This document shows positions 9,646 to 17,663 of a stretch of 35,006 nucleotides of DNA, in pieces. Numbering within the stretch: position 1 is the stretch's first letter; each line of letters starts with the position of its first letter. The stretch comes from a virus. Taxonomy: Duplodnaviria > Heunggongvirae > Uroviricota > Caudoviricetes. Location: the IMG/VR virus record IMGVR_UViG_2778261448_000009, positions 1-35,006 of that record. One strand, given 5' to 3'. The translations under genes were made by a program, and so were the position numbers. Below the pieces are notes generated by a model, which was not told the DNA's origin, searched no databases, and saw only the letters and a program-made list of their open reading frames with translations.

Positions 9646-11658
9646 ATGCTTAAATTTCGCCGCGATCTTAACGGTTACGGTGGAGTTATTAACGAAGGGC
9701 ATAACGATCAATACGAGTTTGAAATTGCTTTCTCAAGTACACAGCCTTATCAGCGCCAATTTTGGGATGAGCAAAATCAAGAAATGGTGGTATTAGATGA
9801 AATTCTGGTACATACACCGGAAGCGGTTGATCTGTCTCGTCTGAATAATAACGCTCCGTTGCTGTTCAATCATAATTTCGATAATCATATTGGTGTCGTT
9901 TGTAACGCTCGAATCGATGCGGATAACGTAGGTCGTGCTCTGGTTAGATTCTCTAAGCATGGCACTTTGGCTAATGATATTCGCAATAAAGTCATTGAAG
10001 GTACGATGGAAAAAATTTCTGTCGGTTATGACATTAAAGAATATCACATCGACTACACCAAAGGACAACTGATTGTTACTAAGTGGGCACCCTATGAACT
10101 CTCATTTGTCACCGTTCCCGCAGACGATACGGTCGGTTTAAATCGCTCTCTAAATACTATCACAGTTAATTTGGAGGCTAAACGCGATATGACTAAAGAA
10201 CAAATTGAAGAAATCAAAGAAGAACAAGAATCCGCTCAGGTTGAAGAAACTCCGGTAGAAGAAAATAAAGAACCGGAAGTTGAAGAAACTCAAGAGCGCC
10301 AAGTTGAAGAGAATAAAGAAGATGAAAATCTCGAAGACGGAAAAGACGCTAAACATCCTGAAAGTGTTGATGATGATAGTTCAACTGTTCGGGAAACAGA
10401 AGAAGTAAAAGAAGAACGTGAAGCTGCTCCGGTTGAAGAAGAAAAAATCGAGGAAGTGGCTGAACGTTCCGAAGAAGACGAATTAGAAATTCGCGAAATT
10501 GCACGCGAGTTAAATATTAACGAAGACGATGAAGAATTTAAACGCGCATTGGCAAATAAAGAAATTACGCCGGAAGCATTCCGCACTAAGGCACTAAATA
10601 AAATCGCTACTGCTCAACGTAACAACGAACAACAAATTAAGGACTCTAAAATGGAAAAAACTTTTGACCTGAACAACGTAATTCGCTCTCTGGTAGATGG
10701 TGCTGCTCTGGGCGCTCATGAAGCTGAATATTCCGCTATGGCTGCTGGTGCTGCAATGCAGCGTGGTCGTGCTGCTCGCGGTGGCTCTGTATTCGTTCCG
10801 GCTGCTGCTATGCGTGCTGCTTCTGCTGGTAACACCAAAGCCGACCTGACCGCTATCACTGACGAAAAACTGATGACTGAATCCTACATCGAAATGCTGA
10901 TGCCGGAATCTGTTCTGGGTCGTCTGGGTGTGACTGTTTACAGTGGCTTGAACTCCCCGACCGCTATTCCAAAAATGACTAAATCCAGCGTTGACGCTTT
11001 CGGCTTCGTTGATGAAAACGGTGCTGCACCGGAAAGCAAAGCTGAATTTGCGAACGTGAAACTGTCTCCGAAAACTTTTGCTGGTGGCAACCCGATCAGC
11101 CGTCAGTCGCTGAAAACCGTTCCGGGCATCGCTACCCTGATCACTGATCACATTAACAAAGCTGTTCGCATCAAACTGGAACAACTGATTCTGTCTGATA
11201 AAGCTAACGACCGTGGTCCGGCTGGTCTGGTTAAGCAACTGGTAGACGCTAGCCGCGTTACCAAGAAAGCTGCTTTCTCTTACAAAGACTTCCTGAAAGA
11301 AATTGCAGCACTGACCGACGCTGGCGTTCCTGCTCAGGCGATCAAGTTTGCGATGAGCGGTGCAACTGCTTCTGAACTGGAATCTACCCTGAAAGATAAC
11401 GGCGTTTCCGGTTATATCATCGAAAACGGCAAACTGGCTGGTTACGAAGTAGTTACTTCTGGCGTTATCCCGGCAGACCACATCGTTCTGGGTGACTTCT
11501 CCGGTATTACTATCGGTGAGTGGGGAGGTCTGGAACTCGACATGGATCTAACTACATATAGGGATCGTGGTGCGGTAGTGCCTCGTATCTTTGTAGATTT
11601 GGACTACGTTGTAGCACAGCCGGAAGCTCTGAAAGTTCTTCACATCTCCGCTGAATGA
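9646..11658 (+). CDS. prohead protease (HK97 gp4-like) - acidic scaffold - major capsid protein, single 670-aa ORF
   Basis: N-terminal LLFNHNFDNHIG, ISVGY and YELSFVTVPA resemble HK97 protease motifs ALFNHD, SFAF and FDVSPVTYPA as I recall them. Residues about 185-300 are E-rich and repetitive. The C-terminal 330 aa have capsid-like composition. TGA stop. Confidence 0.7.
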   Translation: MLKFRRDLNGYGGVINEGHNDQYEFEIAFSSTQPYQRQFWDEQNQEMVVLDEILVHTPEAVDLSRLNNNAPLLFNHNFDNHIGVVCNARIDADNVGRALVRFSKHGTLANDIRNKVIEGTMEKISVGYDIKEYHIDYTKGQLIVTKWAPYELSFVTVPADDTVGLNRSLNTITVNLEAKRDMTKEQIEEIKEEQESAQVEETPVEENKEPEVEETQERQVEENKEDENLEDGKDAKHPESVDDDSSTVRETEEVKEEREAAPVEEEKIEEVAERSEEDELEIREIARELNINEDDEEFKRALANKEITPEAFRTKALNKIATAQRNNEQQIKDSKMEKTFDLNNVIRSLVDGAALGAHEAEYSAMAAGAAMQRGRAARGGSVFVPAAAMRAASAGNTKADLTAITDEKLMTESYIEMLMPESVLGRLGVTVYSGLNSPTAIPKMTKSSVDAFGFVDENGAAPESKAEFANVKLSPKTFAGGNPISRQSLKTVPGIATLITDHINKAVRIKLEQLILSDKANDRGPAGLVKQLVDASRVTKKAAFSYKDFLKEIAALTDAGVPAQAIKFAMSGATASELESTLKDNGVSGYIIENGKLAGYEVVTSGVIPADHIVLGDFSGITIGEWGGLELDMDLTTYRDRGAVVPRIFVDLDYVVAQPEALKVLHISAE

Positions 11659-11745
11659 AATAACGAAGAATTGCCGGAAGAAATTCCGGTAGTTACGGCG
11701 AAAGCCACAGCTAAAAAGGTGGGACGTCCACCGAAAGCAAAATAA
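11659..11745 (+). other. in-frame 28-codon extension after the capsid TGA stop (candidate readthrough product NNEELPEEIPVVTAKATAKKVGRPPKAK)
   Basis: No in-frame stop until TAA at 11743-11745; conserved with the extension after the tail-tube gene, including synonymous codon differences. Confidence 0.5.
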
Positions 11746-11750
11746 TAATT

Positions 11751-11777
11751 AGCCCTGCCTAACGGTGGGGCTTTTTT
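11751..11777 (+). terminator. rho-independent terminator
   Basis: AGCCCTGCC-TAAC-GGTGGGGCT then TTTTTT; near-identical to the terminator at 17621. Confidence 0.75.
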
Positions 11778-11807
11778 GTATGTAAATACTCCATAAAGGG
11801 GGTAACT

Positions 11808-12098
11808 ATGTTCAAATTATCAGAATCACAATTATCAAGAATGTTTAAGAGTGCTCCTGTATTTGTGGTGGAAGGTGGTAAATCAATTCGTGCTTATCAT
11901 GAAATTACTACTACCGACGAATCAGGTGTAATGACAGAAACCGAATTTCTATTCTGTCGTGAGGGAGACTTAAAGCAAGGTGATATTGTCACAGTAGAAA
12001 ACCAGCGTTTCAAAGTTCAATACGTTAAGCGCAATGGTGACAATACTTGTGATTGCTTTATCACTTTAGCAGGGGGTACACATGCTCGCTACCGTTAA
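11808..12098 (+). CDS. hypothetical head-tail joining protein, 96 aa (lambda FII position)
   Basis: RBS AAGGGGGTAACT before the ATG; assignment by synteny only. Confidence 0.4.
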   Translation: MFKLSESQLSRMFKSAPVFVVEGGKSIRAYHEITTTDESGVMTETEFLFCREGDLKQGDIVTVENQRFKVQYVKRNGDNTCDCFITLAGGTHARYR

Positions 12099-12504
12099 TA
12101 ATATGCCGAGACTGAAAATCAAACGCGCCTTGCAAGATATTATCGAACAAGATTTAGGTCTGGCTTTAAACGTAGAACAAACTCAGCAAGGCTTTAGTGA
12201 TGACGTGGTTTGTTGGATTACTGGCATGAATGAAACTTATACGCGTGTTCGTGGTGGTAATGCAATGCAAGCTGAATGCGTTATCGAAATGCAATTATAT
12301 TCTCAGATTCATGAAACCAAAATTCATGAGGGTATTTGCCAGATAATCCAGATTCAGCCGGATAACCCACGTTTTAAAGATTTGGGCTTCTCAATTTCAG
12401 ATATCACTCCAGTAGCTTCTAATACCGATTATGACGATGATTCTAGTGATGGGGGTATCGTTGGGACACTTAGCCTTAAATTTTCTTATCTAGCGCGTTT
12501 TTAA
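12082..12504 (+). CDS. hypothetical head-tail or tail-completion protein, 140 aa (lambda Z/U position)
   Basis: Overlaps the upstream gene by 17 nt; AGGGGG before the ATG; assignment by synteny only. Confidence 0.4.
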   Translation: MLATVNNMPRLKIKRALQDIIEQDLGLALNVEQTQQGFSDDVVCWITGMNETYTRVRGGNAMQAECVIEMQLYSQIHETKIHEGICQIIQIQPDNPRFKDLGFSISDITPVASNTDYDDDSSDGGIVGTLSLKFSYLARF

Positions 12505-12513
12505 GGGGTAATA

Positions 12514-16965: not shown

Positions 16966-16972
16966 TAAAAGT

Positions 16973-16991
16973 CGGGGGACTAGTTCCCCCG
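16973..16991 (+). terminator. hairpin after the fibre gene, weak terminator
   Basis: CGGGGGA-CTAGT-TCCCCCG; the downstream U-run is poor. Confidence 0.4.
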
Positions 16992-17021
16992 TTATAACAA
17001 ATTTAATTAAGGGGTAATTAT

Positions 17022-17495
17022 ATGTCTCAACAATTCAAAGATATTTTTACTGGTGGTTTGGTAAGTCTGTTCTATCACGCTGATACCACTAACACCGATC
17101 TTGCTGATGAAGCATACGAAGAAATTAAAGAGTGTGCTGGTTTTCCTGAAACTGGTATCGAGCGCGGTACTGTAGAAGTTAAATCCTTCTCTTCTCAGTA
17201 TAACCGTAAACTGGTAGGGAAGCTGAACGTTCCTGATCTGACTCTGACCGTTAACTACATCCCAGGCGATGCGGTACATGAAAAACTGATCAAAGCTGCC
17301 GAAGACGGTACTCGTATTCAGATTAAAGTAGAATATTACGTTGACGCAGCAAAACAGACTGGTATTCGCACCGCTTTCAACGGCTTCATTTCTAAAGTTG
17401 CTATGAACGGTGGCGATGAAGAAGTTGTAACCAAAGAGTTTACCTTTGCTGTTGATGGTGCTCCGCTGAAACAGCAAATCTTCACTGCCGGATGA
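17022..17495 (+). CDS. major tail tube protein, gpV N-domain-like, 157 aa
   Basis: DLTLTVNYIPGD, EDGTRIQIKVEY, FNGFISKVA and TKEFTFAV parallel lambda gpV DTSFTLAWMPGE, EGDTRAYKIRF, FRGWVSSIG and TRTVKVTNV as I recall them; RBS AAGGGGTAATT; strong terminator downstream; TGA stop. Confidence 0.65.
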   Translation: MSQQFKDIFTGGLVSLFYHADTTNTDLADEAYEEIKECAGFPETGIERGTVEVKSFSSQYNRKLVGKLNVPDLTLTVNYIPGDAVHEKLIKAAEDGTRIQIKVEYYVDAAKQTGIRTAFNGFISKVAMNGGDEEVVTKEFTFAVDGAPLKQQIFTAG

Positions 17496-17615
17496 ACTAA
17501 CGAAGAACTTCCCGAACCGGAACCACAGCCGGAACATGAAGCGGTGGTGATTCCAGAAGTAGAAGAAGTTACGGCGAAAGCCACAGCTAAACGAAGCCGC
17601 AAGGCTAAAGATTAA
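17496..17615 (+). other. in-frame 39-codon extension after the tail-tube TGA stop (candidate readthrough product TNEELPEPEPQPEHEAVVIPEVEEVTAKATAKRSRKAKD)
   Basis: Open to TAA at 17613-17615; shares NEELPE and VTAKATAK with the capsid extension; identical 24-nt core GTTACGGCGAAAGCCACAGCTAAA. Confidence 0.5.
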
Positions 17616-17620
17616 TTATA

Positions 17621-17648
17621 AGCCCTGCCTTAATGGTGGGGCTTTTTT
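17621..17648 (+). terminator. rho-independent terminator
   Basis: AGCCCTGCC-TTAAT-GGTGGGGCT then TTTTTT. Confidence 0.75.
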
Positions 17649-17663
17649 ATTGGAGTAATCAAA

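Follow-up and report, generated by a model that had tools for sequence, protein, structure and literature searches.

Capsid and tail tube genes followed by a common cassette

The window analyzed here, a 35,006-nucleotide (nt) stretch of DNA that makes up positions 1 to 35,006 of the IMG/VR virus record IMGVR_UViG_2778261448_000009, is a siphovirus-like prophage of Escherichia coli. Its gene content includes a lambda-type terminase and portal, a gpJ-like tip, Rha and a large serine recombinase. Two of its structural genes, encoding the major capsid protein and a tail tube protein, end in a TGA codon that is followed by a further open stretch in the same frame, then by tandem stops and an intrinsic terminator (Table 1). 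This stop-led cassette, which probably lets a small share of the capsid and tube subunits acquire a charged C-terminal tail, is the subject of the present analysis.

The capsid gene encodes a fusion of prohead protease, scaffold and HK97-type major capsid protein, and the tube protein is lambda-like. Both assignments, proposed earlier from a sequence-only reading of the window, are upheld by Pfam, PHROG and PGAP, the PGAP label of the capsid homologue being “phage major capsid family protein”. A PDB sequence search with the capsid matched the major capsid protein 8gta (E = 2e-24), a match that leaves the direction of the C-terminus unsettled, and the same search with the tube protein gave no match. 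The linker between the protease and capsid domains (10218-10444) contains three imperfect 35-nt repeats that encode acidic EE..E..VEE motifs and are probably a scaffold-like segment.

The capsid extension starts with acidic and proline-rich sequence, continues with VTAKATAKK and finishes in a basic end. The sequence-only reading had placed and translated both extensions correctly, and the synonymous differences that it listed between them (TTG/CTT and CCG/CCC) are present. The nucleotide core shared by the two is also real, although it is 25 nt long rather than 24; only two copies occur in the window, and none would be expected by chance. The two near-identical terminators turned out to score higher than any other in the 5-24 kb region, and each extension is closed by tandem stops. 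What had been overlooked is an RNA helix, here called P1, that starts shortly after each TGA.

Table 1. Positions of the capsid and tail tube genes and of the parts of their cassettes, in window numbering.
Feature	Position	Strand	Remarks
Prohead protease/scaffold/HK97-type major capsid fusion, 670 amino acids (aa)	9646..11658	+	Pfam PF04586 and PF05065; PHROG 617
Leaky-type stop TGA (11656-11658) and 10-nt spacer (AATAACGAAG)	11656..11668	+	TGA-A[A/C]T invariant in relatives
In-frame capsid extension, 28 codons (NNEELPEEIPVVTAKATAKKVGRPPKAK)	11659..11742	+	frame 0 open in all variants
Helix P1, capsid: 11-bp hairpin AAUUGCCGGAA-GAAA-UUCCGGUAGUU	11669..11694	+	starts 10 nt past UGA
25-nt core common to tube cassette	11691..11715	+	contains P1 3' end (GTT) and small hairpin GGC-GAAA-GCC (11697-11706)
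Hairpin GGTGG-GACGT-CCACC in basic end	11718..11732	+	relatives GGCGG...CCGCC
Tandem strong stops TAA TAA closing the capsid extension	11743..11748	+	5 nt before terminator stem
Intrinsic terminator after capsid cassette	11751..11778	+	9-bp stem and T run (T6)
Lambda-like tail tube, 157 aa	17022..17495	+	PF16460/PF16461; PHROG 158; PGAP homologue “phage tail tube protein”
Tube stop TGA	17493-17495	+	
In-frame tube extension, 39 codons (TNEELPEPEPQPEHEAVVIPEVEEVTAKATAKRSRKAKD)	17496..17612	+	open in all tube type-A relatives
P1 5' arm AACTTC, tube	17506..17511	+	starts 10 nt past UGA; relative allele AACAACC pairs with GGTTGTT
P1 3' arm GAAGTT, tube	17565..17570	+	ends at GTT of core
25-nt core, identical to 11691-11715	17567..17591	+	
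Hairpin AGCC-GCAA-GGCT in basic end	17595..17606	+	G variant retains a G-U pair
TAA TTA TAA	17613..17621	+	extension stop and second in-frame TAA two codons on
Intrinsic terminator after tube cassette	17620..17650	+	10-bp stem and T run (T6)

Conservation of the stop, the frame and helix P1

Relatives were collected by a capsid-homology search that was blind to the cassette. This gave 32 close relatives with 83-100% aa identity over the C-terminal 270 residues, and in all 32 the capsid gene ends in TGA-A and continues in frame for 28 or 42-45 codons to a TAA just before the same terminator. With metagenome matches added, the set comprises 92 cassette copies with 43 distinct extension sequences from E. 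coli prophages and metagenomes, and in every one of the 92 the first stop is TGA followed by ACT or AAT. The codon before the TGA takes eight forms (GAA, GAG, GAC, GAT, GGA, GGT, GCT and TCT), and the second codon of the extension takes four.

The tube gene occurs in two types. Type A, which is at least 89% identical to that of the window, always has TGA-A and an extension of 36-41 codons, while type B (58% identical) is without an extension, its TAA stop lying right at a terminator. In general, relatives whose capsid or tube is without an extension have TAA as the stop. One tube copy (L070) retains the extension in front of a different terminator, and a capsid type that is only about 39% identical (L009 type) still has the cassette. 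Since the cassette, led by its stop, is retained across such varied flanks, with the L070 terminator and on the L009-type capsid, the unit begins at the stop codon and moves as a block. Among the late-operon genes, TGA is confined to capsid and tube, the other 19 all having TAA as their stop.

The extensions fall into ten length classes (28, 33, 42, 43, 44 and 45 codons on the capsid gene; 36, 39, 40 and 41 codons on the tube gene), all of them in register between the TGA and the terminal stop. At least eight insertion or deletion events are required to explain these classes, all in multiples of three, an outcome with a probability of about (1/3)^8 if lengths were unconstrained. Nonsense changes are absent among at least 97 substitutions, where 2.8-4.2 would be expected (P = 0.013-0.058), and none of the other five frames is free of stops in all variants. 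The frequency of G at codon positions 1, 2 and 3 of frame 0 is 0.39-0.49, 0.07-0.08 and 0.23-0.29, which is coding-like, as in real genes. Between the extension stop and the terminator stem downstream of it there are 5-8 nt in every variant, the L070 copy included.

Natural variants in which a sense codon replaces the TGA, so that the tail is fused to the capsid, were also sought. A query made of the chimeric C-terminus gave only a partial capsid, an absence that is weak evidence, and among the capsid homologues listed none is longer than 648 aa, which is likewise weak evidence against a natural fused variant.

Helix P1 has a fixed position and a variable sequence. Its 5' arm lies at +10 nt from the UGA in all 43 variants, other registers giving no more than 3 pairs, and its 3' arm ends in every variant at the GTT that opens the shared core. 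In the short capsid form, an 11-bp hairpin with a GAAA loop, AAUUGCCGGAA pairs with UUCCGGUAGUU; in the long capsid form, AACC.UCUG pairs with CAGA.GGUU; the first tube allele has AACUUC and GAAGUU, and the second AACAACC and GGUUGUU. A U-A pair is swapped for C-G in L046. Covariation was assessed on an alignment that was trimmed and anchored and that holds only about five independent versions of the helix. On this alignment, 90.5% of the cells pair, compared to 25-45% when the partner is slid, and six of nine pairs have changes on both sides; none of 500 shuffles reached the observed values. Compensatory changes in P1 are non-synonymous, with L to Q accompanied by E to V, and L to S by V to I.

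P1 is not the only structure in the cassette. The long capsid form contains an internal 8-bp hairpin that has no changes where 6.3 would be expected (P = 0.002), and the two capsid forms of the cassette fold much better than shuffled sequence (z = -5.6 and -4.1). In the hairpin at the basic end of the capsid extension, one compensatory pair change was seen, and QRKTKE-type variants are without this hairpin. An Rfam search with the cassette found no family match. Directly before the same hairpin, at 11709-11717, lies the sequence GCT AAA AAG, which resembles a Lys-slippery site followed by a structure. It is probably coincidental, since only ribosomes that had read through the TGA would get there.

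Candidate leaky termination and its alternatives

The explanation that we favor, and hold to be probable on the strength of the comparative evidence, is structure-assisted leaky termination at the UGA, which would yield minor, C-terminally tagged capsid and tube subunits. It best explains a frame that stays open through length changes, an invariant TGA-A, the status of these two as the only late genes without TAA, and the presence of similar tails within the open reading frame (ORF) of related capsids. The cassette would consist of a weak stop, UGA-A[C/A]U, a 10-nt spacer, a helix closing a variable insert, a tag that ends in tandem TAA and an intrinsic terminator. A UGA followed by A is reportedly, since Engelberg-Kulka in 1981, the classic readthrough context of E. 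coli.

Most ribosomes would end at the UGA and release normal capsid or tube protein. A few percent would instead insert an amino acid, most likely tryptophan, as tRNA-Trp vies with release factor 2 (RF2), and would go on to add 28-45 codons that specify a flexible acidic/proline-rich spacer and a Lys/Arg-rich tip. Decoded with tryptophan, the capsid junction would read ...LHISAE-W-NNEELPEEIPVVTAK. With the UGA in the A site, the helix would abut the ribosome, and it probably raises or sets the level of readthrough. For comparison, a reporter UGA in E. coli K-12 is read at about 2-4% by tRNA-Trp in competition with RF2 (PMC10570021). At a level of a few percent, and assuming a T = 7 capsid, each head would have on the order of 5-20 tailed subunits. 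The tails may be displayed on the outside of the head and tail, as T7 10B and the lambda gpV C-terminal domain are, and their makeup, a cationic tip behind an acidic/proline-rich spacer, suggests that they bind anionic surface polymers weakly.

Tails of this kind are found elsewhere in the capsid family. Capsids with 45-55% identity, from Salmonella, E. coli and metagenomes, have short acidic-then-Lys/Ala tails within the ORF, after the same fold-closing motif. Examples are ...GEAEAGETRKAK*, ...KVEASKAK*, ...PAGAEAKSKA* and ...GTPAEAKAAKQ* (the asterisk marks the stop), each with a terminator directly after it, and they resemble the ...PKAK* and ...TKAK* ends of the cassette extensions. A sister clade (L081-L090, with capsids 77-100% identical to each other) has either a Lys/Ala-rich tail in the main ORF or an early TAA. 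In members with the early TAA, the -1 frame is open to just before the terminator; examples are L087 (...DGSLTDTGAQAAPVRKPRALKVTK*), L088, L081 and Escherichia phage DCP80 (L001, 7760-7930). Near the stop are the heptamers A_AAA_AAG, of the dnaX type, in L087 and A_AAA_AAA in L082, and a hairpin 6-7 nt past the stop shows one compensatory change, from C:G to A:T. A -1 frameshift is thus a possible route by which the sister clade would reach the same kind of tail. Taken together, the in-ORF tails, the -1-frame tails and the cassettes make a charged C-terminal tail look like a family trait that is reached by different decoding routes.

The claims of the sequence-only reading, which had also proposed readthrough, fared unevenly in this respect. 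It had named relatives that keep the core and scramble the frame as evidence against itself, and the frame is open in 92/92 copies. The open frame, the TGA-A context and the exclusivity of TGA in the late operon all support readthrough, as do the in-ORF tails. Apart from the capsid and tube genes, it had seen TGA only at the Rha gene and at a 77-aa gene; TGA also ends two other candidate ORFs (1205-1534 and 34097-34576), but within the late operon the pattern is stronger than claimed. An ATG-AAx-TAA mini-frame over the stop is present in the window but is not conserved, given the eight preceding codons and a second codon of AGC, CCT or TTC in relatives. The proposed selection on the peptide rather than the RNA found no support: substitutions are not concentrated at third positions, the ratio of non-synonymous to synonymous polymorphism (pN/pS) is 0.43-0.73, and the RNA helix is clearly selected.

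Several results weigh against leaky termination. The substitutions in the extensions are distributed 28/28/41 over the three codon positions, which is not significant, and the pN/pS of 0.73 for the capsid and 0.43 for the tube extension indicates only weak constraint at the amino acid level. Several changes that preserve the helix alter amino acids, so that pairing outranks residue identity. The tube extension alone folds no better than its shuffles (z = -1.1). The indels in multiples of three may be due in part to slippage in 6-nt repeats or to the reshuffling of existing alleles, and the Lys-rich end could be in part a by-product of the A-rich tract that is common before terminators. Natural E. 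coli has an RF2 that works more efficiently than that of K-12, which may put basal readthrough below 1%. We know of no downstream stem that stimulates readthrough in bacteria, and the spacer of 10 nt exceeds the 7-9 nt seen with the stimulators of eukaryotic viruses.

The main rival takes the cassette to be a structured 3' untranslated region (3' UTR). Helices P1-P3 and the terminator would act as RNA only, and the open frame would have no function. Such an RNA might, for example, shield the mRNAs of capsid and tube, which are abundant, from 3' exonucleases, tune the terminator or yield a small RNA derived from the 3' UTR. The clear covariation of P1 through residue-altering changes fits this explanation well, as do the invariant 8-bp hairpin of the long form, the strong folding of the capsid forms, the GNRA-type loops (GAAA and GCAA), the weak constraint on residues and the location of the cassette on the two most abundant mRNAs, right before strong terminators. 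However, it leaves unexplained why the frame is open in all copies over ten length classes with no nonsense change, why TGA is exclusive to these two genes in an operon that otherwise uses only TAA, why the stops are in tandem and why a similar tail lies within the ORF of relatives. Nor did Rfam offer a match, and a search for small-RNA targets within the window found complementarity of no more than 11 nt. We therefore consider an RNA-only role unlikely, though it is the alternative to be taken most seriously.

It could also be that translation past the UGA matters and the peptide does not. A ribosome that halts 5-8 nt before the terminator stem would cover its 5' arm and suppress termination or otherwise alter the fate of the mRNA, and in this way the head-tail and tail-assembly genes downstream would have their expression linked to leaky decoding. 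The short distance of 5-8 nt between the extension stop and the stem, kept even in L070 with its different terminator, is what such masking would predict, and it would explain how an open frame is kept while its residues drift. The effect would be small, however, because only the leading ribosome counts and only in the few percent of cases of readthrough. Moreover, masking gives no reason for 28-45 codons or for an acidic-then-basic composition that recurs in three sequence classes, and the constitutive tails of relatives favor a role for the protein. Both forms of this idea seem improbable to us. Still more remote is the idea that the extension is in decay: a nonsense mutation would have severed a C-terminal tail that the ancestor had, leaving neutral DNA behind. 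The in-ORF capsid tails of relatives and the weak constraint on residues would be compatible with decay, but the same TGA-led cassette is found on two unrelated genes, is kept with capsids of only about 39% identity (L009 type) and exists as many alleles with zero frameshifts or stops, and the TGA never becomes the otherwise universal TAA. This explanation is strongly disfavored.

Several other readings were tried and rejected. The only tRNA called by ARAGORN in the window (12269-12359, minus strand, 91 nt, tRNA-Gln) is antisense inside the gene at 12082-12504 and is a false positive rather than a suppressor; in relatives its anticodon flips between Gln and Glu, and the call is missing in half. 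Reassignment of the stop codon does not apply, as TGA occurs only at gene ends in the window. Selenocysteine insertion was dismissed because the hairpins differ among three classes (a GAAA loop, a large multi-branch loop and a weak stem) and have no Rfam match; the comparison was with the selenocysteine insertion sequence (SECIS) of E. coli fdhF. The extension is in frame 0, follows eight different codons before the stop and has no conserved heptamer, in all of which it is unlike the frameshift-derived extensions. An independent start inside the extension was rejected too: conserved start codons in frame (ATG, GTG or TTG) with a Shine-Dalgarno sequence are lacking, and where the window's capsid copy has TTG, the tube copy has CTT. 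Antisense ORFs on the minus strand (e.g., 17007-17537 and 17336-17602) are likewise rejected, since the reverse frames have stops in some relatives.

The prophage and its place among known recoding systems

Of 5,426 complete E. coli genomes, 55 contain capsid DNA more than 80% identical to that of the window. The PGAP annotation was inspected for one genome, that of E. coli 14EC007 (NZ_CP024131, with the prophage at about 2.97-2.99 Mb), where the capsid stop and the tube stop are each followed by an interval that is left empty up to the gene that comes next. In another E. coli sequence, NZ_CP195866.1, the capsid gene is split by an IS1A element, indicating that some copies of the prophage are defective. 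Searches of a cultured phage collection gave no nucleotide or peptide match to the cassette and no DNA-level match to the window, and both a capsid profile search and a core-pattern search of species-representative genomes were empty. The nearest cultured record is that of DCP80 (PQ671644.1), with a capsid 43% identical and a TAA stop. The record is 141 kb long and is classed as Straboviridae/Gaprivervirus, yet its first 1-22 kb are a lambda-type module of terminase, portal, capsid fusion and tube that is related to the prophage family. It is either an unusual mosaic or a chimeric assembly.

The order of the tail genes in the window is unusual. First comes a 277-aa protein with an N-terminal tube-like domain (12514-13347), next a 1178-aa long fiber similar to T4 gp34/gp37 with an S74 chaperone domain (13429-16965), then the 157-aa tube gene and finally a gp38-like adhesin (17664-18170). 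Relatives with a type-B tube (L020) have neither a tube cassette nor a gp38-like gene, so that tube type A, cassette and adhesin travel together. Tandem imperfect repeats of 92 nt (13651-13895, 83% identical) in the long fiber gene and of 69 nt (25575-25754, 72%) in the gpJ-like tip gene are likely to be repeated structural modules. An intergenic region (1746-1880) upstream of the ORF at 2562-3011 holds five or six direct repeats similar to TTTTTGCCCCTGAA, spaced 13-22 nt apart; they are iteron-like and could be an origin, an operator or a packaging site.

In tailed phages, lengthening of a minority of structural subunits by recoding is known only through frameshifting, and the readthrough version is known in Qbeta. 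Our literature search found no report of readthrough in capsid or tail genes of double-stranded DNA (dsDNA) phages or of a downstream helix linked to readthrough in bacteria, although its coverage was incomplete and does not prove absence. Tentatively, the cassette could be the first case in tailed dsDNA phages of programmed UGA readthrough that is assisted by RNA structure, a movable unit by which head and tail would both receive the same charged tag in a fixed low amount. If this is confirmed, stop-codon readthrough would join the recoding repertoire of dsDNA phages, and P1 would be the first helix downstream of a stop to be tied to readthrough in bacteria, such signals having come until now from eukaryotic viruses and genes. 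The cassette would also offer a compact natural part of about 100-150 nt for low-dose peptide display on phage heads and tails. Finally, attention would be drawn to a type of product that PGAP and gene callers leave unannotated, in a prophage whose capsid gene is carried by 55 complete genomes.

The closest natural comparison for the tails themselves is with the constitutive tails of related capsids. These have the same position past the HK97 fold, are acidic/Ala and then Lys-rich, end in ...KAK and are followed by a terminator. They differ from the cassette in being present on every subunit, in their length of 8-16 aa and in having no stop, spacer or helix in front.

The helix can be compared with stimulators of readthrough in alphaviruses, in tobra-, furo- and pecluviruses and in Drosophila kelch, where a stem 7-9 nt past the stop closes a large, variable loop and shows compensatory changes within translated sequence (PMC3159437). 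The pseudoknot of murine leukemia virus (MuLV) is grouped with such 3' structures that stimulate UGA readthrough. P1 shares with the eukaryotic elements a fixed short spacer (10 nt), a long and poorly conserved loop and compensatory substitutions. Their stems have 10-14 bp, however, whereas P1 has 4-11 bp, would face a bacterial ribosome and is a putative stimulator.

Minor extended capsid or tail proteins are made through frameshifting by gene 10A/10B of T7 and T3, by Lactobacillus phage A2 and by the Listeria phages A118, A500 and PSA. As with the extensions here, the end of T7 10B falls a short way ahead of the main late terminator. These systems rely on -1 or +1 slippage at slippery sites and have the extension in another frame, often as an Ig-like domain, whereas the cassette lies in frame 0 behind a stop, has no conserved slippery site and encodes a short charged tail. 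For the decoding step, the better parallel is Qbeta (Allolevivirus), whose coat stop reads UAC UGA ACU in the RefSeq record and thus has the same UGA-ACU hexamer as here. According to the RefSeq annotation, readthrough of about 5% produces the minor extended coat protein A1, and the extension opens with a Pro-rich linker. Qbeta is nevertheless a single-stranded RNA phage with a folded 196-aa extension that is essential for infection. The prophage is that of a tailed dsDNA phage, with predicted tails of 28-45 aa that are probably disordered, a cassette on two structural genes and a helix at +10. In its predicted outcome the cassette would resemble T7 10B or the system of Listeria phage PSA, and in its decoding Qbeta A1.

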